Shown: in pieces, positions 15,252-30,250 of the stretch
Layout: every line of letters begins with the position of its first letter
Position numbering within the stretch: position 1 is the stretch's first letter
NCBI RefSeq assembly: GCF_002368115.1
Contig: NZ_AP018316.1
Coordinates: 305,344-369,343 of the forward strand
Direction of reading: 5' to 3'
Length of the DNA stretch: 64,000 nt
DNA from: Dolichospermum compactum NIES-806
GTDB lineage: Bacteria > Cyanobacteriota > Cyanobacteriia > Cyanobacteriales > Nostocaceae
The notes under the pieces: generated by a model
The model's input: the letters and a program-made list of their open reading frames with translations, nothing else
What the model was told of the DNA's origin: nothing
Databases searched by the model: none
Translations under genes and position numbers: made by a program

Positions 15252-15458
15252 TCAATTCAAAGTAGAAAAATGTTTTAAAAATTGCATAAAAGCAGGAATA
15301 TGATATTTAGCATAATTACTCTGTTCTGAGTAAAATTTAGCTATTTGCCTTAATAGTTCATCCCTAAATACCTCCTCTGTATTAGTCCAATCACTTGGTG
15401 GTTTAATGTCTTCCCAATAGTCCTCTTTAGTGTTTTTATCCTTAACTTTTTTAAGCAT
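15252..15458 (-). CDS. small hypothetical protein (68 aa)
   Basis: Coding-like composition. It lies ~95 bp downstream of the IS4 element, and before that insertion it would have sat ~100 bp downstream of the ATPase/TOPRIM-like operon. Confidence 0.3.
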   Translation of the reverse strand: MLKKVKDKNTKEDYWEDIKPPSDWTNTEEVFRDELLRQIAKFYSEQSNYAKYHIPAFMQFLKHFSTLN

Positions 15459-15554
15459 TAATAAGGCATAAATTAACTCATTCCTGCGTGTTTCATCTGA
15501 ATTTTCAAACTGTTCTTTCCAGGAATCACGTAACTTTTCTAAATCTGTACAATC

Positions 15555-16728
15555 AGAAATGTTGAATAGCGTAATAAAACTTTACATATTGAAATAAACT
15601 TAGCCTATAAGTGCTATTTTTCATCTTATCCAAATAAGTTTTCTAAACCAATGAACATAACTTATTTCCTGACACATATAGGACTGAAGATAACGGAGTT
15701 TATCTAATAAAGTTTTGCCAAATTCTTGCGGTATTTCTATTAGTTGCAATATCAAATAAGCGATTAAACAGCACATTATCTGAATTCTAATTCCATTCTC
15801 ATTCTTTGTCATAAGTCTGTCTAACTTGAGGTGCATTTTTAAGAATTTCCATAACAATTCAATTTGCCATCTTTGTATGTAAATTTCCATAATCTCTTGA
15901 TTACTAACTTGCTCTTCTCCTTCATTTAATAAGTTTGTTGCTAAACGAAATTCACTCTTAGTTTCTATATCACAAAATGCTACTACTCTAATTTCCACTT
16001 CTCTTTCATCTTTGCCAACTTTACAATTACCATTTTCTAGCATTTCTAAAGTGACATTATTTTTAATTCTTAAGACAAAAGCTTTATTTTTTTGTTGTTT
16101 TAATTCAGATATTCTTTCGGAGGATGCAAATCCTCTATCCATTATCCCTACTCCTTTTGACGGAATTGCTTCTACTGTTTCTTGTCCATATTTATGGTCA
16201 TGTCCTTGCCCAAAATGAATCACCATTCCACCAACTTCTGATGTCAAACTATCTAACCCACAAAATAGTTTTACTTGATGATATCCTTGACTCCATAATA
16301 ATTTACTTGTTAATGTAATAATTGTTGAATCTATAGGAAATAATGCTTGGGTTTCTTCCTTTCCTTTTTTCTTTCTCAGTTGATTGTTTAATTCAGTTAT
16401 TATCTCCAAAAATACTTGAGTATCTCTCTTTTTACTTGCCTTGGAAAAATTTGATATTTTTAAATCTATCCCTTGATTATTTAGTCTTTGAAATAAATCT
16501 CTCATACTCACTATACTTTTATCCATGACATACTGTAACCACACTGATACAAATGAAAATGTGTCCAGAACTGGATAATCTTTTTTGGGCAATGGTTTCA
16601 ATATTGTTTTGACCACTTCTGGGAAATTCTTTAAGCGCATAATTTGATAATTCTTTATCTATATTTTTTTAGATTGTATCAAATTATGGTACTTTTTTTT
16701 AATCTTTTCCTAACATTCAACACTTCTG
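15555..16728. mobile_element. IS4-family insertion sequence, apparently intact (single transposase ORF, imperfect 14-bp terminal inverted repeats, 10-bp target-site duplication)
   Basis: Left end agaaatgttgaat... and right end ...attcaacacttctg (reverse complement cagaagtgttgaat) match at 13 of 14 positions. The flanks carry the direct repeat CTGTACAATC at 15545-15554 and 16729-16738. Confidence 0.7.
15621..16640 (-). CDS. IS4-family DDE transposase
   Basis: 339 aa. The C-terminal ...EIMEIYIQRWQIELLWKFLKMHLKLDRL is the YxxRWxIE(x)F(K) block characteristic of IS4/IS10-type transposases. Confidence 0.85.
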   Translation of the reverse strand: MRLKNFPEVVKTILKPLPKKDYPVLDTFSFVSVWLQYVMDKSIVSMRDLFQRLNNQGIDLKISNFSKASKKRDTQVFLEIITELNNQLRKKKGKEETQALFPIDSTIITLTSKLLWSQGYHQVKLFCGLDSLTSEVGGMVIHFGQGHDHKYGQETVEAIPSKGVGIMDRGFASSERISELKQQKNKAFVLRIKNNVTLEMLENGNCKVGKDEREVEIRVVAFCDIETKSEFRLATNLLNEGEEQVSNQEIMEIYIQRWQIELLWKFLKMHLKLDRLMTKNENGIRIQIMCCLIAYLILQLIEIPQEFGKTLLDKLRYLQSYMCQEISYVHWFRKLIWIR

Positions 16729-16786
16729 CTGTACAATCTAATCCTGAACAATGACTAATGCGATTAGAAACCTTTGATAAGTTATT

Positions 16787-17404
16787 TTATAAGTCATTAC
16801 TATTAATAATAGCATTTGCCATAGTAATATAAACATCTTCAAGAATAAGTTTTTGACTATTATACATAGGAACATTAATATAATCATCAAAAACTTCTTG
16901 CAGTTCAGGTATGATGAAATATGCTTCTTTGTGAATTAATCCCGTCACCCAAATGCGATGGTTTCTGGCATTTTCCTCATTAATTTGACCTTGGTGATAA
17001 AGATTTAAGAAAATTTCTTCTGTATTAGAGAAACCGTAATTATCAATATTTTGGGACTGTAAATCTAAATCAACTATAGCAAAAAGCTTATCAGGATTTA
17101 AGTATGACTCTCTACTACCTTCTTCATGTAATTCTAAAAGCTTAAAATAAGTATCTATAACACCTGTTCTACCTTGACAATTAAAAAATTCTGGTTTGTA
17201 TGTTTTCCATGTCTTTGGAATGCATTTTATGTAAAAATCTGCATCTGGCATTTGCTTCATTTTTCCGTAATTTACTGTTGTTTCATCACTTAAATTTAAA
17301 ATACTACCTTGACCTTCACACAAAACAACAATTCTCTGTCTAATGTTTGGATTTCCCAGAATTTCGTTACAATGTTGCATTAGTTTTTTTTGATAAGTAT
17401 TCAT
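16787..17404 (-). CDS. TOPRIM-like small protein (DUF4276/RloB-like), predicted nuclease partner of the upstream ATPase
   Basis: 205 aa. It has a beta-strand-like RIVVLCEGQGS with a conserved Glu (~E30) and, about 80 aa later, FAIVDLDLQ (D112-x-D114). This is the E ... DxD spacing of TOPRIM domains. Its start codon overlaps the ATPase stop (ATGA). Confidence 0.55.
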   Translation of the reverse strand: MNTYQKKLMQHCNEILGNPNIRQRIVVLCEGQGSILNLSDETTVNYGKMKQMPDADFYIKCIPKTWKTYKPEFFNCQGRTGVIDTYFKLLELHEEGSRESYLNPDKLFAIVDLDLQSQNIDNYGFSNTEEIFLNLYHQGQINEENARNHRIWVTGLIHKEAYFIIPELQEVFDDYINVPMYNSQKLILEDVYITMANAIINSNDL

Positions 17405-18864
17405 AGTGGAATATTATTATCTGATTTGATAAGCTTTGGTTTTAGTTCCCTGACATGAGCCGGTGTAAGCGCTCGACATAATTGATAAGAATGAGTTGCT
17501 AAAATATATTGATTACTAGGAGACCATTCTTCTAAATCTCTAATTATTTCATATTGCCAATCTGGATGAAATCCTATTTCAATTTCATCCATGAGAACAA
17601 TAGCATCTTCGATTTTATTATACTTTATCCATAAGTAAATGCTCAATCTTTTTAATTCACCATGACTTAAATCTTCAGGATAAAGTTTAATATTTTCATC
17701 ATTTGTGTCTAACTGGAAGATGATTGTGGATAAATCTGTAGAAATATTTACTTTTTTATAAACCAAGAATGAATTCAAATCATCTAATAATGCTTTATAT
17801 CGCTTACCATACTCACCTTCAGTTTTTATAGCATCTCTGTAATCTTCATTTATAGCATTTGTGAATACTGTAATCATCGGTTGAGCAAAATCATAAGTAA
17901 AAAATCCTGGTAGTTTCAATTTAGACATTTTTAATTCTGAATCATAATTTTTATCACCATTTTGTTCAAAGAATCGTCTTCTGTATTCGTGATGAGTAAA
18001 TAGAAAAACTTGACTAATAGGAGCAGCTAAGAATACTTTATTTGATATTTCATCTAACCAGGCTTCTGCTTTATTGATATCTAAATTATCACCAATTTGG
18101 CATAATACAAATTCATTTTCTTCAGTATTAATTCCTGAAGAATAATTACATATATATATAATGTTTTTTTCATGCAAGTATGTGGATATTTTTTGCAATA
18201 CAATATCTATTTTTTCTTTTTCCTGCGAAAGTTCATCAAGATTTAGTTGATATGAATCAAGCATTTCTTCAACTTCTTCTTTAAAATCTGCAACTGGCAA
18301 TCTTCTTATTCTAGAGGATATTATATTATTATAGAATAATTCACGCATTACTTGTTGGAATCGTCTGTGCTTAATATCATCATTTTCTAGCTTTTCATGA
18401 ATTTCTAATTTATTAATTGCTTTTTCTAGTTGTTCAATATCTTGTTCTGTTTTATAAATATTCTTAGTGATATTTTCTAGTTTTTCAAAATTAGATAATT
18501 TCCAGTCTTCATTGTTTTTGTATTTATGATCTTGTTTTAATATATTTTCGATATAAGTGTTATGACAAGCTAGAAATTTAATTTCAACTTCTTTTTCACC
18601 ATCCCAAATTTTGATGATAGCTAATACTCTATCACTAGAGTCATCATTAAGTGTAAAGCCATGTAGTAAATTCTTTATAAAAATTTTTCTTTCTGGATTT
18701 GTGCAGCAATGTAATAACACAAAAACTAATTGTAAAAGTGTACTTTTACCACCTCCATTGAGGCTTCCTAAAGGAAAGATATTAGGGACAAACTTTCTAT
18801 CAAACTTAATATCAACATCTTTCAAAACGCGGAAATCGGGTACTTGAACTTGTAGTAACTTCAT
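17401..18864 (-). CDS. ABC-type (AAA_21/SMC-like) ATPase with a coiled-coil insertion
   Basis: Walker A FPLGSLNGGGKSTLLQLV (K~40), then a long K/E-rich helical insertion. The C-terminal region has an ABC signature-like LSHGELKRL, Walker B AIVLMDEIEIGFHP and an H-loop ILATHS. This is the OLD/AriA/GajA-type ATPase architecture. Confidence 0.75.
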   Translation of the reverse strand: MKLLQVQVPDFRVLKDVDIKFDRKFVPNIFPLGSLNGGGKSTLLQLVFVLLHCCTNPERKIFIKNLLHGFTLNDDSSDRVLAIIKIWDGEKEVEIKFLACHNTYIENILKQDHKYKNNEDWKLSNFEKLENITKNIYKTEQDIEQLEKAINKLEIHEKLENDDIKHRRFQQVMRELFYNNIISSRIRRLPVADFKEEVEEMLDSYQLNLDELSQEKEKIDIVLQKISTYLHEKNIIYICNYSSGINTEENEFVLCQIGDNLDINKAEAWLDEISNKVFLAAPISQVFLFTHHEYRRRFFEQNGDKNYDSELKMSKLKLPGFFTYDFAQPMITVFTNAINEDYRDAIKTEGEYGKRYKALLDDLNSFLVYKKVNISTDLSTIIFQLDTNDENIKLYPEDLSHGELKRLSIYLWIKYNKIEDAIVLMDEIEIGFHPDWQYEIIRDLEEWSPSNQYILATHSYQLCRALTPAHVRELKPKLIKSDNNIPL

Positions 18865-19168
18865 GTGAATTTTCTTCCTTGAGAAATATTACATATTGGA
18901 ATTATACCGTTAACACTGAATCACGGCTAACCTAATCATAATTCATTTAGGGTGGGCATTACCCATCACTAGACTTTACAATATTTTACACCTTAAACTT
19001 AACCGTGATCAGCTTCATGGCTGCTTCGACATCTTCTAAAGGCATAAATTTGGAAATAACCTGCACCCACAGAGTAAAATCTGATTAATATGTCTTGCTT
19101 AAAAAATCCCATATACTGTATTTGTGCTAGTGTAACTTTTAATTACTCCCTGTTTTTCGCTTTCTCAA

Positions 19169-20602
19169 ATGAACACTATACCCGAATCCATCCCCAATTG
19201 GGAAGAAGAATTGGATAATGCCATTTTTACCTTTGACGATATCCAAGCCGAACTTAACTACAAACAAGCCAAAAACGCACTCCGAAACTTAGTTAAAAAT
19301 CTTGATCTTTCCCCTGTGGAAAAATCAGGGTTAGAAGCAGAAATTCATGATTTAGAAACCATGCTAGATAAACTAGAAAGCATGGTAGTCCAAATTGCTG
19401 CTTTTGGGATGGTAGGACGGGGTAAATCTTCCCTTCTCAATGCTTTAGTCGGTCAAGAAGTCTTTGTTACAGGTCCCCTACATGGTGTTACTCGTGATGC
19501 ACAAACAGTAAATTGGAGTATTACTGAAGCAGCTTTAGGGACTTTAAAAGCCACATTACCCAGCAATGGTCAATCCCAAGTTGAATTAATTGATACTCCT
19601 GGATTAGATGAAGTAGACGGTGAAACTCGCGCAGCTTTAGCTGAACAAATTGCCAGGCAAGTAGATTTAATTTTATTTGTAATTTCGGGAGATATGACGA
19701 AGATTGAACAAATAGCATTATCGCAATTACGAGAAGTAGGTAAACCGATTATTTTAGTCTTTAATAAAGTTGATCAATATCCCGAAACTGACAGAATTAC
19801 AATTTATGAAAAAATTCGAGATGATAGAGTGCGGGAATTACTTTCACCAGCAGAAATCGTTATGTCCGCAGCTTCACCATTAGTCAGAATTGCGGTACAA
19901 AATCCTGATGGGACTAGAGGTATAAAACTCCAAAAAGGACAATCACAAGTTGACGAATTAAAATTGAAAATATTGGAAATTCTGCACCATGAAGGTAAGG
20001 CATTAGTAGCTTTAAATACTATGCTTTATGCTGATGATGTTAATCAGCAATTGGTACAACGTAAACTAATAATTAGAGAAGAAAATGCTAATCAGTTAAT
20101 TTGGAAAGCAGTCATTACTAAAGCATTAGCGATCGCACTCAATCCTGTTACAGTAGTGGATATACTCAGCGCCGTAATTATAGATATCTCCTTAATTTTA
20201 GGCTTATCCAAGCTTTACGGTATCCCCATGACCGAAACCGGTGCAGTCAAATTACTCCAAAAAATCGCCCTGAGTATGGGTGGTATCGGTGCTAGTGAAC
20301 TATTAGCAAATTTGGGTTTAAGTAGTTTAAAAACCCTACTGGGTATCTCTGCAACAGCAACCGCCGGCATGACAATTGGACCCTATTTATCCATAGCTAT
20401 AACCCAAGCAGGTGTAGCTGGAGTATCTTCATACAGTATCGGTCAAGTTACCAAAGCCTATTTAGCCAATGGTGCAACTTGGGGACCAGATGGACCAAAA
20501 GCAGTAGTTAGTCAAATTCTATCAACTTTAAATGAAACTTCAATTTTGAACCGAATTAAAGATGAATTGCTGATTAAAGTTAGACTCAGAAAAAAAATAT
20601 GA
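19169..20602 (+). CDS. GTP-binding protein (Era/EngA-like G domain) with a C-terminal hydrophobic DUF697-like domain
   Basis: G1 GMVGRGKSSLLNALVG, G3 LIDTPGLDE and G4 VFNKVDQ. The C-terminal ~170 aa are rich in small hydrophobic residues (ALAIALNPVTVVDILSAVIIDISLILGLSKLYGIPMT...). Confidence 0.65.
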   Translation: MNTIPESIPNWEEELDNAIFTFDDIQAELNYKQAKNALRNLVKNLDLSPVEKSGLEAEIHDLETMLDKLESMVVQIAAFGMVGRGKSSLLNALVGQEVFVTGPLHGVTRDAQTVNWSITEAALGTLKATLPSNGQSQVELIDTPGLDEVDGETRAALAEQIARQVDLILFVISGDMTKIEQIALSQLREVGKPIILVFNKVDQYPETDRITIYEKIRDDRVRELLSPAEIVMSAASPLVRIAVQNPDGTRGIKLQKGQSQVDELKLKILEILHHEGKALVALNTMLYADDVNQQLVQRKLIIREENANQLIWKAVITKALAIALNPVTVVDILSAVIIDISLILGLSKLYGIPMTETGAVKLLQKIALSMGGIGASELLANLGLSSLKTLLGISATATAGMTIGPYLSIAITQAGVAGVSSYSIGQVTKAYLANGATWGPDGPKAVVSQILSTLNETSILNRIKDELLIKVRLRKKI

Positions 20603-26443: not shown

Positions 26444-26472
26444 GGGTGGGCTATTTTGTCCACCCTTATTTT
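26444..26472. terminator. intrinsic terminator hairpin shared by the convergent atpE and Type IIG gene
   Basis: GGGTGGG-ctattttgt-CCACCC followed by TTATTTTAT. The hairpin is symmetric, so it could act on both strands. Confidence 0.5.
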
Positions 26473-29400
26473 ATCCTTCTATAATTTTTATCTCTTCTGT
26501 TGTTAGTTCGTAAAGTTGATAAACTAACTGATCTATTTCTGTTTCTAATGTGGTTGTATCTGCTTTTGGATCTAATTTTTTAGCGGTGAGAATCTGATTA
26601 ACCATTTTTTCTAATAACAATTCTTCAGTTTCCGTAGTTTCTTTAATGGGTAACATTTCAATTTTATACTTTTTCCATCTATTTGTACCCATTCCTGTGG
26701 TAGTTGAAATCTGGTTAAAATACCATTCTGATAGTTTTGAATTTAAAATTGCTAACAAATATTTAAGTTTTTCACCAGTCATTAAAAATGTAGTAGCTTC
26801 AGCATAATAGCTAGAGTCATCAAAAGCAAATTTAGGTTTATCAGAAATTTCACCCCAAACAATTTTAGGTTTATTAAAATCATCTAAATAAGCACAGTTT
26901 CTTAAATTTGTCCAATCTTTACCCTGATCTTGTCTTTGTTCAATTTGAGGAAGAAAAGAAATTAAATAATTATAAATAGATGGGTAATTTTCTTTAACTT
27001 TTATTCTCTCGATGTTATTTTTTGCCACTCCATTATGTGTATTAATTAGATAAAATCCAGAAAATTCATAACTATATTTTTTTAAGTCTCTACCTCTTAA
27101 AATTGGCTGAATTATTTCAGCAGAATTAGAACTTTCAGCAATTAATTGATGTTTAGTTTCCTCATTGATAATAAAAGCTGCATTTAGTCCAGTAAGCAAA
27201 CCTCTATTAATATTAATATCAAATTCTTTTAAAAGTTTAGAGGATTGCTCTATTTTTTGTTTCAAACTTACGGTTTCTTCATTACCTATAATCCATTCTG
27301 ATGTATTAGGTATTGTAAATTGAAAATAGTTTTTATCAAAATACTCTTCTAATGAAGAACCAATCAGATAATTATTCGTTAAACTAGCAACATCAAAAAA
27401 TTCATTAACTTTATCTTTTTTCAAGATGAAAATATTTGATTCTACAGTTGCTTCCTCAAAAATTTGCATATCTTCAATATTTAATAAAGTTTGAGGTTGG
27501 AGATTTTCAATTAAATATTTTTTCAGTAAATCACCATAAATAGTTTTTAACCAAGAATTAGAAGTAATGTAAGTTAAAAATCCTGCTTTTCTTAACAAAC
27601 AACTTCCTTTTTCGTAAAACAAGCAATAAATATCTGAACCCCTTGTATAAGTTTGATAATTATTTTCAAAATAAGCAGTTTGATTTTTTTCTTTAATTTT
27701 AGATAGTGAAAAATAAGGAGGATTGCCAATTACGACATCAAAACCGATAAAATCACCTTCATCATTCAAAACTTCAGGAAATTCAAACCGCCATTCAAAA
27801 GCATTTTGATACAATTTACCACTTTTTTTATCCTCAATTTCACTATTAAGTTGATTAATTTGCTGTTCTAACTCTTCTTGCTTTTTTTGACGACTTTTTG
27901 CTTCTGCTTTACTTTCTGCAAATAATGACTTCTGATCTCGTAAATGACGAAGTTCTGCAACTTTTTGATTTCGCTTTTCTATATTCGGATCATTGCTACT
28001 AATTTCTGTACGTATTTTACTTTTAATATCATTAATTAACCTCTCTATTTCCTGTTTTTTATCCTTGTTATCAGTATTATGATAGGTTGTTATAGCATTT
28101 CTATAACTTTCAATATTCCAATTGCTTTTTTTCAAAATTGTCCGTAAATCCCAATTTAAAGGAAAACGACTGATTAAAGAATTACCAGTTTTAATATTAA
28201 TATCAATATTTGGTAAAGTTTCCAATTCTCCTATATTCCCCTCTCCTGGTAGGAGAGGAGTTAGGGATGATGTCTTATAATAAGCATTCTTTAAAAGCTC
28301 AATCCATAAACGTAACCGACAAATATTAACTGAATTAGGATTTATATCTACACCAAATAAACAGTTTTCAATAATTGTCTGTTTTTCATGAAAAAGTGTT
28401 TCTTGTATGCGTCTACTTTCTGAATTTTTAGGATTATATTTGAAAAAATTACCATCGTCATCTGTAATATTTAACTCATCATTTTCAATTTTTACATCAT
28501 AATCTCTTAAAGTTTTTCCTTGTCTATCAAGTAAAACCTTCAAGTCACTTTTAATAGTAATAATTTCATTTAAAGCTGAAACCAAAAAATGTCCAGAACC
28601 TACTGCTGGATCACAAATTTTTAAACTATTGATAATCTGATTAGCTTCTTTTTTATCTGTTATTTTATCATACAATTCGTCAATATTTGCACAGTTCCAA
28701 CCTTTAATTTCCCTGAATTTTTGTAAAACTGCTCTGCGAATAGTTTCCCGACACATATACATAGTAATAAAGCCAGGAGTGAAGAAAGAACCATCTTGAT
28801 AACCGTTAATTTTCTCAAAAATTAAACCTAAAACAGAAGCATTAATTAAAGTTTTATTTTCTTCTTGAATTTCCTCTGCACCTTCACTGCTAAAGTCGTA
28901 AGCATCAAGAAATGCAAAAATATATTCTAGTGCTTTTAATTTCCCTGTCCGTGTATTACCATTATCTTTAAGAACTGTTTTGTTAAAAATAGAAAGTTTT
29001 TCATCATTGATTAAATTACTAATAACTATGGTTTTATGTTCGATTTCTGATACTTCAAATAAAGAACTATTCAAATAAGGAATATTAGCAACAATATTTT
29101 TTATATGTTCGTCTCTTTCATCTGGTTTACGAGATAAAACACCAAAAAATAAACGGTTGAGATTACCAAAATCTTGAATCTTTGCTATATTGAGAAATCC
29201 AAGAGATTTATCACCTTGATGATAGTTAATTAATTGGGATTCTAAAAGTTTCAAAAAGAGAATGCGATTAATCCAAGTAATAGCTAATTCTAAACTAACA
29301 TTAAAAAGTCTCTCTTCGGTATTTTCTCCAAATTGTTCTAAATTTTCTAATCTGTCAATTTTGCGTAATTCTTGCAAACGAGTAATAGTATTTTCAATTA

Positions 29401-30250
29401 ATGAACCCTGTTCCCTTTCATTAATTGATTTACGCTGAATTAATTTTTTACTACCTTCTTTAATTTCCGTTAAACCAAGAATGTGTAGTAATTCACTATA
29501 AAAGTTTCTATTTAAACTATTGCTATCATTAATAGTAGGTAACTTTAATAAATGTTGTGGTGAAAACAGCTTAAATAAAGGAATCAGTTTTTGATCATTT
29601 TCAGGATTTTGATTAATTAAATACTGTTCATAATCTCTAATATCAAAATGTGTGAAAATTAGTTCATTTTGAATTTTATCTATTGCAGGTTGAGCAATTT
29701 CGTTATAAAAGAAATCCGTGCGAGAATTAGATAGACGTTTTTCTTCAAAATCAGTAAATTGCTTGACTAATTGTTTATTCTGAGCAAACAAATTGTCAAA
29801 AAGTGTTGCATCAAAAATGAACCATTCATGAATATTAGTAGCAATTAAATATTTAATTTCTGGATTTTTATTTGTAATCCGTTCTCGTAAAAAGTATAAA
29901 ACTAATTGTTGTAATGCTTTAGTATTTAAATTATTAACCTTGAGCATTTCATTGTTATTTACCTTTTTAGCCTCTAAAATCACACCAACATTGCTTTTAG
30001 TATCTTTTCCATTATAAATTACTAAGTCATTACTGGCTTTAATATTTATTAAGTAATCAGCACCATAATAGGTATTTTTCAAAAAATCAGTAAGAATATT
30101 TTTATGAAATTCCTCTCTTTCGTTTTCATCAATTTGATTAAGTAGTGTAATCAGATTCCTTTTAAATATCTCAAACTCATTTCTAATTGGTTTAATTCTC
30201 AGAAATGTTTTGCTTAATGCTTGTCTAGGTTTAATTTTATTGTCAATCAT
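26471..30250 (-). CDS. Type IIG restriction-modification enzyme: N-terminal PD-(D/E)xK-like nuclease, Eco57I/TaqII-type gamma N6-adenine methyltransferase and C-terminal target-recognition region in one 1259-aa polypeptide
   Basis: N-terminal ...NGKDTKSNVGVILEAKK (D...ExK). Methyltransferase motifs SFFTPGFITMYMCRE (motif X), ICDPAVGSGHFLVSA (motif I) and, after a coiled-coil insertion, AFEWRFEFPEV...FDVVIGNPPY (motif IV). The gene is very AT-rich relative to its neighbours. Confidence 0.8.
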   Translation of the reverse strand: MIDNKIKPRQALSKTFLRIKPIRNEFEIFKRNLITLLNQIDENEREEFHKNILTDFLKNTYYGADYLINIKASNDLVIYNGKDTKSNVGVILEAKKVNNNEMLKVNNLNTKALQQLVLYFLRERITNKNPEIKYLIATNIHEWFIFDATLFDNLFAQNKQLVKQFTDFEEKRLSNSRTDFFYNEIAQPAIDKIQNELIFTHFDIRDYEQYLINQNPENDQKLIPLFKLFSPQHLLKLPTINDSNSLNRNFYSELLHILGLTEIKEGSKKLIQRKSINEREQGSLIENTITRLQELRKIDRLENLEQFGENTEERLFNVSLELAITWINRILFLKLLESQLINYHQGDKSLGFLNIAKIQDFGNLNRLFFGVLSRKPDERDEHIKNIVANIPYLNSSLFEVSEIEHKTIVISNLINDEKLSIFNKTVLKDNGNTRTGKLKALEYIFAFLDAYDFSSEGAEEIQEENKTLINASVLGLIFEKINGYQDGSFFTPGFITMYMCRETIRRAVLQKFREIKGWNCANIDELYDKITDKKEANQIINSLKICDPAVGSGHFLVSALNEIITIKSDLKVLLDRQGKTLRDYDVKIENDELNITDDDGNFFKYNPKNSESRRIQETLFHEKQTIIENCLFGVDINPNSVNICRLRLWIELLKNAYYKTSSLTPLLPGEGNIGELETLPNIDINIKTGNSLISRFPLNWDLRTILKKSNWNIESYRNAITTYHNTDNKDKKQEIERLINDIKSKIRTEISSNDPNIEKRNQKVAELRHLRDQKSLFAESKAEAKSRQKKQEELEQQINQLNSEIEDKKSGKLYQNAFEWRFEFPEVLNDEGDFIGFDVVIGNPPYFSLSKIKEKNQTAYFENNYQTYTRGSDIYCLFYEKGSCLLRKAGFLTYITSNSWLKTIYGDLLKKYLIENLQPQTLLNIEDMQIFEEATVESNIFILKKDKVNEFFDVASLTNNYLIGSSLEEYFDKNYFQFTIPNTSEWIIGNEETVSLKQKIEQSSKLLKEFDININRGLLTGLNAAFIINEETKHQLIAESSNSAEIIQPILRGRDLKKYSYEFSGFYLINTHNGVAKNNIERIKVKENYPSIYNYLISFLPQIEQRQDQGKDWTNLRNCAYLDDFNKPKIVWGEISDKPKFAFDDSSYYAEATTFLMTGEKLKYLLAILNSKLSEWYFNQISTTTGMGTNRWKKYKIEMLPIKETTETEELLLEKMVNQILTAKKLDPKADTTTLETEIDQLVYQLYELTTEEIKIIEG

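Follow-up and report, generated by a model that had tools for sequence, protein, structure and literature searches.

Pairings of an ATP-binding cassette (ABC) ATPase with a TOPRIM protein are a well-known theme, already represented by OLD classes 1 to 4, AbiL and MADS. OLD proteins of classes 1 to 3 carry both domains on a single polypeptide (PMC10568477). Here, we analyze a locus of the two-gene kind in a stretch of 64,000 nucleotides from the cyanobacterium Dolichospermum compactum NIES-806 (contig NZ_AP018316.1, positions 305,344 to 369,343 of the forward strand; this whole stretch is called the window, and positions are given in its numbering). The locus consists of an ABC-type ATPase gene and, directly behind it on the same strand, a gene for a TOPRIM-like partner protein.

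The closest described system is PARIS. Its ATPase AriA assembles as a trimer of dimers by way of helical insertions. Six AriA subunits sequester three of AriB; when a phage protein such as Ocr is detected, in a step that depends on ATP, AriB is freed, dimerizes and cleaves host tRNA-Lys (PMC11464382). The catalytic, metal-binding residues of AriB are E26, D30, D88, E90 and E122; the two proteins co-evolve, and conservation is low in the pores of AriA that bind the trigger (PMC11464382). The published detection rule for PARIS calls for an ATPase scoring at least 32 bits with AAA_15 or at least 27 bits with AAA_21, beside a protein scoring at least 27 bits with DUF4435 (PF14491) (PMC9122126).

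The original prediction, made from the letters of the window, described the locus as an intact module of the split OLD/PARIS type. We found that the second gene is broken in the window, and we consider it rather probable that the locus contains a decayed version of a two-gene system, composed of an ABC ATPase and a 322-residue TOPRIM nuclease, which belongs to an unannotated cyanobacterial family and is a distant relative of PARIS (AriA/AriB, OLD class 4).

An intact ATPase gene and a partner gene with two lesions

The ATPase gene occupies 17401..18864 on the minus strand, is intact and encodes 487 amino acids, with a variable central coiled-coil insertion at approximately residues 100-260. 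As predicted, the protein contains a Walker A motif (GSLNGGGKST, including K40), a signature motif (LSHGELKRL), a Walker B motif (LMDEIE) and an H-loop (H458); these elements, together with Q285, show no variation in a family alignment of 37 ATPase sequences. It scores above the Pfam cut-offs for both AAA_21 (48 bits) and AAA_15 (37.1 bits), and differs from the ATPase of Dolichospermum sp. DEX189 at five amino acids. The predicted ATGA overlap between its stop codon and the start codon of the partner gene (17401..17404, minus strand) could also be read directly in the sequence.

Behind this overlap, a complete 205-residue protein had been proposed, with an IS4 element immediately downstream and a 68-residue open reading frame (ORF) as a possible third component. 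The 205-codon ORF does exist (16787..17404, minus strand), but it is only the portion of a longer gene that lies upstream of a premature stop. A homology search with this ORF returned 463 proteins, nearly all of them cyanobacterial; full-length homologues have 313-323 residues, and those of Dolichospermum and Anabaena (323 residues) are 92-97% identical. In the window, codon 206 is TAA (E206*; 16787..16789, minus strand) in place of the GAA of the intact allele, a G-to-T change at 16789. On the minus strand, the frame runs on past this TAA (NNLSKVSNRISHCSGLDCT) to a mobile element, resumes beyond it and reaches the natural stop. The 5' part of the resulting pseudogene (16729..17404, minus strand) comprises codons 1 to approximately 226 and includes the TOPRIM core with E30, D54, D112, D114 and E129. 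The 3' part (15252..15544, minus strand) encodes the helical C-terminal domain, resuming with DLEKLRDSW and ending with HFSTLN and the natural stop, as in the homologues. The 68-residue ORF (15252..15458, minus strand) lies inside this 3' part and is the C-terminal end of the partner, not a third component.

The mobile element is an insertion sequence (IS) of 1175 base pairs (15554..16728, minus strand). A DDE transposase, terminal inverted repeats and a direct target-site duplication place it in the IS4 family, as had been stated. Its 339-residue transposase ORF (15621..16640, minus strand) matches Pfam DDE_Tnp_1 (4e-25) and NCBIfam NF033592 (173 bits, cut-off 115), and the inverted repeats, CAGAAGTGTTGAAT and CAGAAATGTTGAAT, match at 13 of 14 positions. 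The 9-base-pair duplication, ATTGTACAG on the minus strand, is found at 16729..16737 and again at 15545..15553, and agrees with the overlap of the two collinear blastn blocks obtained against the DEX189 locus (L087). The position assigned to the element was wrong, however: it is inserted in the partner gene, at approximately codon 226, and is thus one of two lesions rather than mere context. It is single-copy within the window (blastn), and was not found in four sister assemblies with the same synteny.

These four assemblies, which include DEX189, share the gene order of the window (slr1306-family GTPase, 487-residue ATPase, partner, ABC permease and glycosyltransferase), and in all of them the partner is an uninterrupted gene of 322 residues. 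The flanks of the window locus are collinear with those of DEX189 at 97-98% identity, with the IS as the sole gap. Deletion of the IS and one copy of the duplication restores a frame of 969 nucleotides, and a nucleotide comparison of this frame with DEX189 revealed six differences, of which four are synonymous and the others are D127N and E206*. Together, the 205-residue ORF, the IS4 element and the 68-residue ORF are a single pseudogene with two lesions. The partner gene has been inactivated by E206* and by the IS4 insertion, and the ATPase gene is intact. Because the truncation at E206* removes the C-terminal helical domain of the effector, the copy of the system in this genome is presumably non-functional. 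In AriB, the substitutions F137A and E285R, which are predicted to block dimerization and one of which lies near the C-terminus, abolish defence (PMC11464382).

A family of paired genes in filamentous cyanobacteria

A scan of one genome per species identified 157 relatives of the partner, almost all in filamentous cyanobacteria, including Dolichospermum, Aphanizomenon, Nostoc, Calothrix, Rivularia, Microcoleus, Coleofasciculus, Tychonema and Lyngbya. Eighty loci were fetched for neighborhood analysis. In 77 of them, the ATPase gene is directly upstream of the partner gene on the same strand, with the ATGA-type overlap of 4 nucleotides or a short gap (-11 to +27 nucleotides in nearly all); two of the three unpaired loci lie at contig ends. 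The ATPase and the TOPRIM protein are encoded by separate genes in all 77 paired loci and in the window. The intact family is therefore a strictly conserved, often translationally coupled pair. Neither a lack of conservation of the two genes as neighbors nor lack of a TOPRIM fold, both of which the original prediction had listed as speaking against it, was observed.

A few relatives were located on contigs of metagenome-assembled genomes labelled Pedobacter (L069), Entotheonella (L080) and Vulcanimicrobiota (L086). These are probably mis-binned cyanobacterial contigs, with the possible exception of L086, whose ATPase is the most divergent (441 bits with the family profile, 525 residues) and could be a genuine non-cyanobacterial case.

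The pair has a preferred chromosomal position. In 50 of the 80 loci, dapL, encoding LL-diaminopimelate aminotransferase (TIGR03542, 615 bits), precedes the pair on the same strand, at a median distance of 294 nucleotides, and this linkage spans Nostocales and Oscillatoriales. The statement that nothing housekeeping is operonic with the pair thus holds for the window only and fails for these 50 relatives. In the window (18865..20602) and in the DEX189 lineage, the gene upstream of the ATPase is a divergently oriented slr1306-family GTPase (19169..20602), at a position where most relatives, another Dolichospermum included, have dapL (L001:5404-6750 compared with L087:4263-6000). The presence of the GTPase instead of dapL implies a rearrangement with its breakpoint immediately upstream of the pair. 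The GTPase-flanked lineage has the long, 487-residue ATPase instead of the forms with 371-417 residues.

Recurrent neighbor clusters comprised DapL, a CofH-like protein, a glycosyltransferase, Uma2 and proteins without annotation. In Microcoleus and Tychonema, genes for Uma2-family (PF05685) endonucleases and for an unannotated family of approximately 198 residues occur within 20-1700 nucleotides on either side of the pair (e.g., L053:7905-8546 and L070:4015-4611), the latter family sometimes in two or three copies per locus. Both are probably multi-copy cyanobacterial elements and not components of the system.

The pair evolves quickly. Measured against a Dolichospermum reference, DapL has a median identity of 87%, the ATPase one of 59% and the partner one of 53%, a rate for the pair that is 3-4 times faster than for the adjacent dapL, and the divergence of both follows taxonomy. 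Within the Dolichospermum/Anabaena/Aphanizomenon group, the nucleotide-binding lobes of the ATPases are 90-93% identical, whereas the center (approximately residues 100-260) is 40-60% identical, and ATPase length varies from 371 to 492 residues. A Rivularia ATPase of 357 residues lacks the insertion altogether. In each of the 76 loci tested (among L007-L086), the pair also has a higher AT content than its flanks, by a median of 10 points; the median guanine-plus-cytosine (GC) content is 0.32 for the ATPase, 0.36 for the partner and 0.44 for the flanks. The predicted AT-richness of the window locus is real as well (GC 0.28-0.29 in the pair region versus 0.374 in the whole window). This low GC content persists despite apparently vertical inheritance beside dapL.

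Disruption of the effector has also occurred elsewhere. In Nostoc sp. (GCA_054880735.1; L093:4001-5250), the effector gene contains an insertion of approximately 183 base pairs after codon 208 or so, beyond which the frame resumes. In Phormidium sp. (GCA_049589015.1; L094:4001-4630), the effector stops after codon 209, and the C-terminal domain was not detectable downstream of it. The ATPase gene is intact in both organisms, and both disruptions arose independently of that in the window. Other ORFs of the partner in databases end at residues 204-217; we do not claim a truncation hotspot at the domain boundary, since the query was the 205-residue fragment, which favors truncated matches in the ranking. 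The hypervariable ATPase center, the fast evolution, the AT-richness and the recurrent disruption of the effector together form an immune-like pattern of evolution.

Predicted fold, described relatives and the rest of the window

We built an AlphaFold2 model of the partner from the intact 323-residue homologue P0002 with 49 sequences (predicted local distance difference test, pLDDT, 91.2; predicted template modelling score, pTM, 0.89). The modelled core has a β-α-β-α-β-α-β order, with E30 at the end of β1 and D112 and D114 at the end of β3, and the helical C-terminal domain starts at approximately residue 188. The TOPRIM-like fold that had been proposed is thus present in the model, and the intact partner is predicted to consist of a TOPRIM domain and a helical C-terminal domain, in an AriB-type fold. 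AriB was its best structural match, aligned over 201 residues at 11% identity, compared with 132-152 residues for OLD-type matches. The two motifs on which the TOPRIM assignment had been based, VVLCEGQ (E30) and IVDLDLQ (D112, D114), are present in the partner. An alignment of 49 diverse homologues shows no variation at E30, D54, D112 or D114, and at least 90% conservation of E129. These four residues and the near-invariant E129 appear to fit the acidic-residue pattern of AriB.

Several observations weigh against a relationship to PARIS. A Foldseek search of the partner model against the Protein Data Bank (PDB) gave nothing significant and did not retrieve AriB. None of the Pfam families DUF4435, Toprim_OLD, RloB (PF13707) and DUF4276 (PF14103) matched the partner above threshold, and the identification of the protein as a small DUF4276/RloB-type partner had to be abandoned; the real protein has 322 residues. 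Among 14 full-length members scanned, a single one (P0168) gave a DUF4435 score, of 19.7 bits against a cut-off of 27, while the AriB-like protein of a Yersinia phage, used as a positive control, reached 87.3 bits. Eight full-length partners matched no AriB model in PADLOC. The DUF4435 profile is narrow, built from 13 enterobacterial sequences around the AriB-like protein of the P2-like Yersinia phage, and an hhalign comparison of the partner family with it had no statistical support (P = 0.026, probability 1.9%). In that weak alignment, E30, D54, D112 and D114 lie opposite E35, D39, D84 and D86 of the profile, in the register KIVVLCEG/KIFFxLEG, D54 and F57/D39 and F42, GRxxVI/GKPEVI, and AIVDLD/GICDAD; a 19-residue insertion before D54 in the cyanobacterial partners corresponds to the low-confidence loop 31-50 of the model. 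The genomic setting is also a difficulty. A stable chromosomal site beside the housekeeping gene dapL is atypical for defence islands, and a tblastn search of 50,697 phage and 72,556 plasmid records detected no relatives of the partner, whereas canonical PARIS is often carried by phages or satellites.

Other sequence searches with the partner were equally unproductive. The 205-residue fragment had no match in Pfam, PADLOC, NCBIfam or PHROG, and none to DUF4435 at E-values up to 1; four full-length homologues had no Pfam match, including DUF4435, even at E-values up to 10. The divergent partner P0168 matched an AbiLii model at an E-value of 0.002, which was the sole PADLOC match obtained with the eight full-length members. 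A match of the partner to ABC-3C CTD11 (Pfam, E-value 0.63) was dismissed as noise. The partner profile found no relative among PDB sequences, where only chance matches to USP2 appeared, and when the family profile was searched exhaustively against 1.84 billion representative proteins, it returned 163 matches, all of them family members or fragments. There is therefore no visible sequence bridge to DUF4435 or to any other family.

For the ATPase, the nearest solved chains by sequence were PtuA, retron ATPases and AriA (E-values of approximately 1e-7, C-terminal part only). PADLOC models of AriA match the window ATPase (2.9e-15), but those of PtuA match better; an AbiLi match is weak (5.8e-10) and below the generic PtuA and AriA matches. 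AriA was the best structural match, although for this protein the comparison is not strongly discriminating. Defence ATPases (AriA, PtuA) ranked above repair ATPases.

Measured against the published rule, the ATPase passes both alternative thresholds, the adjacent, co-oriented ATPase and TOPRIM genes have the expected layout (with the second gene disrupted in the window), and the partner fails with DUF4435. Because this score is below the cut-off and AriB models miss the partner, the pair is not filed as PARIS by sequence. The resemblance lies in fold and layout. Both systems have two adjacent, co-oriented genes, ATPase first, which nearly always overlap or are less than 30 nucleotides apart; an AAA_15/AAA_21 ATPase with a helical insertion; a partner of approximately 35 kDa, whose N-terminal TOPRIM domain is followed by a helical part; conserved acidic catalytic residues in the same register by sequence; and co-evolving genes, with a poorly conserved region in the ATPase. 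The cyanobacterial pair differs from PARIS in that its partner lacks DUF4435 at the cut-off and a PADLOC AriB match, so that the published rule misses it; in a low-confidence loop of approximately 20 residues between the catalytic Glu and the Asp-bearing helix; in an ATPase insertion that ranges from absent to approximately 150 residues; in a chromosomal location, usually downstream of dapL, and absence from the phage and plasmid collections; and in near-confinement to filamentous cyanobacteria.

A genuine PARIS pair from Yersinia phage vB_YenM_31.17 (OM140653.1; L091:2077-4226) scores 75.5 bits with AAA_15 and 87.3 bits with DUF4435. In this P2-like phage, it is flanked by the genes for the cI repressor and the integrase and is annotated 'ATPase' and 'hypothetical protein'. 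Its AriB-like protein has no phmmer match to the solved AriB, which shows how highly diverse AriB is.

Other described systems also differ from the cyanobacterial pair. OLD classes 1 to 3 (P2 Old, TsOLD, Gabija GajA and retron-associated OLD) combine in one protein what are separate genes here, and the cyanobacterial partner has no Toprim_OLD match in Pfam; neither the UvrD-like helicase of class 2 nor the reverse transcriptase of class 3 was among the recurrent neighbor clusters of the 80 loci. In Septu and type I-A retrons, the partner of PtuA is the HNH nuclease PtuB, not a TOPRIM protein, and the sequence matches of PtuA to the ATPase cover mainly the C-terminal region from Walker B to the H-loop. 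A type I-A retron (reverse transcriptase, PtuA-like ATPase and PtuB; L092:896-4073) in the 11.5-kilobase, inovirus-like filamentous Vibrio phage 10N.261.55.B9_PE001 surfaced as a weak match to the ATPase. AbiL, composed of the AbiLi ATPase and the RloB-like TOPRIM protein AbiLii, shares the two-gene layout and the weak AbiLi match, but the window protein and seven of the eight members tested have no RloB/AbiLii match.

Elsewhere in the window, the other low-GC block (GC 0.27-0.28) is filled by an ORF of 1259 residues (26471..30250, minus strand) with DUF7149, DUF7814, Eco57I methylase and TaqI_C specificity domains. It resembles a type IIG/IIL restriction-modification enzyme of the single-polypeptide kind; its PglX-like matches are far under the BREX cut-offs. 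A promoter scan yielded 38 promoter-like sites versus 25 expected, which is uninformative in AT-rich DNA, and a terminator scan of the same DNA found none.

Proposed function and alternative explanations

Beside the anatomy, fold similarity and evolutionary pattern documented above, we infer by analogy that the two proteins form a complex and that the pair has a trigger, a substrate and a defence phenotype. In an intact system, an oligomer of the ATPase may keep the nuclease inactive, as in PARIS. The hypervariable central coiled-coil region of the ATPase would then detect a phage-derived trigger, and ATP-dependent release would free the nuclease, which may act via its C-terminal helical domain. 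The freed enzyme could cut host nucleic acid, either tRNA, like PARIS, or DNA, like OLD and Gabija, and thereby abort the infection.

Other explanations have to be considered. The pair might be a split OLD-type DNA nuclease, in which a TOPRIM enzyme, regulated or targeted by the ATPase, nicks or degrades phage or host DNA without any cycle of sequestration and release, as in P2 Old, TsOLD and GajA. We regard this as unlikely, because the partner scores clearly higher with AriB and aligns with it over the longer stretch, because two separate genes are the arrangement of PARIS (OLD class 4) and not of the fused classes, and because neither of the accessory genes of classes 2 and 3 recurs nearby. 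It is still less probable that the pair is a selfish, toxin-antitoxin-like addiction module, with a TOPRIM toxin and an ATPase antitoxin or regulator kept by post-segregational or linkage effects and with no dedicated anti-phage role. The vocabulary of the field leans this way: depositors of the AriA-AriB complex entries call AriA an 'antitoxin', AriB has been named a toxin activated by AriA (PMC11464382), and in Pfam, the AAA_21 domain carries the description 'putative AbiEii toxin, Type IV TA system'. The repeated loss of the effector with retention of the ATPase and the AT-richness of the pair relative to the host genome would also suit such a module. However, the pair was not found on plasmids or phages, where addiction modules thrive; its stable position beside dapL and its taxonomy-tracking divergence indicate long vertical retention, and trigger recognition explains the hypervariable ATPase center better.

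The dapL linkage and an SMC/Rad50-like head could instead suggest that the pair serves a housekeeping purpose, such as DNA repair or chromosome maintenance, in which a Rad50/RecF/RecN-like ATPase and a TOPRIM nuclease are conserved in filamentous cyanobacteria. This is very improbable. The pair is carried by only about 157 species representatives, outpaces DapL in its divergence, and has a central ATPase region that differs greatly between close relatives and is missing from one Rivularia protein. The partner gene is dispensable, being a pseudogene here and intact in sister strains, and AriA and PtuA outrank repair ATPases as matches. Least credible of all, and in fact refuted, is the arrangement of the original prediction, an intact 487-residue ATPase with a small DUF4276/RloB-type TOPRIM protein of 205 residues, perhaps a 68-residue third component, and an unrelated IS4 element. 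All three ORFs are indeed open, and the first 205 residues include the TOPRIM core; yet the homologues are longer, sister genomes have a single 322-residue gene, the frame passes through the TAA and the IS with its duplication into the 68-residue ORF, and the proposed families are not matched.

The reading of the locus as a decayed, distant relative of PARIS thus remains the one we favor. A more elaborate version of it, to which we give appreciable weight although on balance we slightly doubt it, is a 'cyano-PARIS': an unrecognized, lineage-restricted branch of ABC-ATPase/TOPRIM immune sensors that escapes current defence hidden Markov models and is anchored in the chromosome beside dapL instead of travelling on mobile elements. 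In this branch, a hypervariable, recombining coiled-coil module of the ATPase would sense cyanophage proteins, a nuclease with a distinctive 20-residue insertion in its active-site region would shut down the infected cell, and recurrent loss of the effector would reflect a cost of autoimmunity.

For the window, the analysis amounts to a correction of annotation, in which one pseudogene replaces two genes and a 'third component', and its value lies more in the family than in this dead locus. Should the intact family prove to function in defence, the PARIS/OLD class would gain a sequence-orphan branch, and detection rules based on DUF4435 would be missing whole lineages. The stable site beside dapL and the fast-evolving ATPase center would serve as a natural series for following changes of trigger specificity in an ABC-ATPase sensor. 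The pair would also be a candidate determinant of cyanophage resistance in bloom-forming Dolichospermum, Aphanizomenon, Nostoc and Microcoleus.

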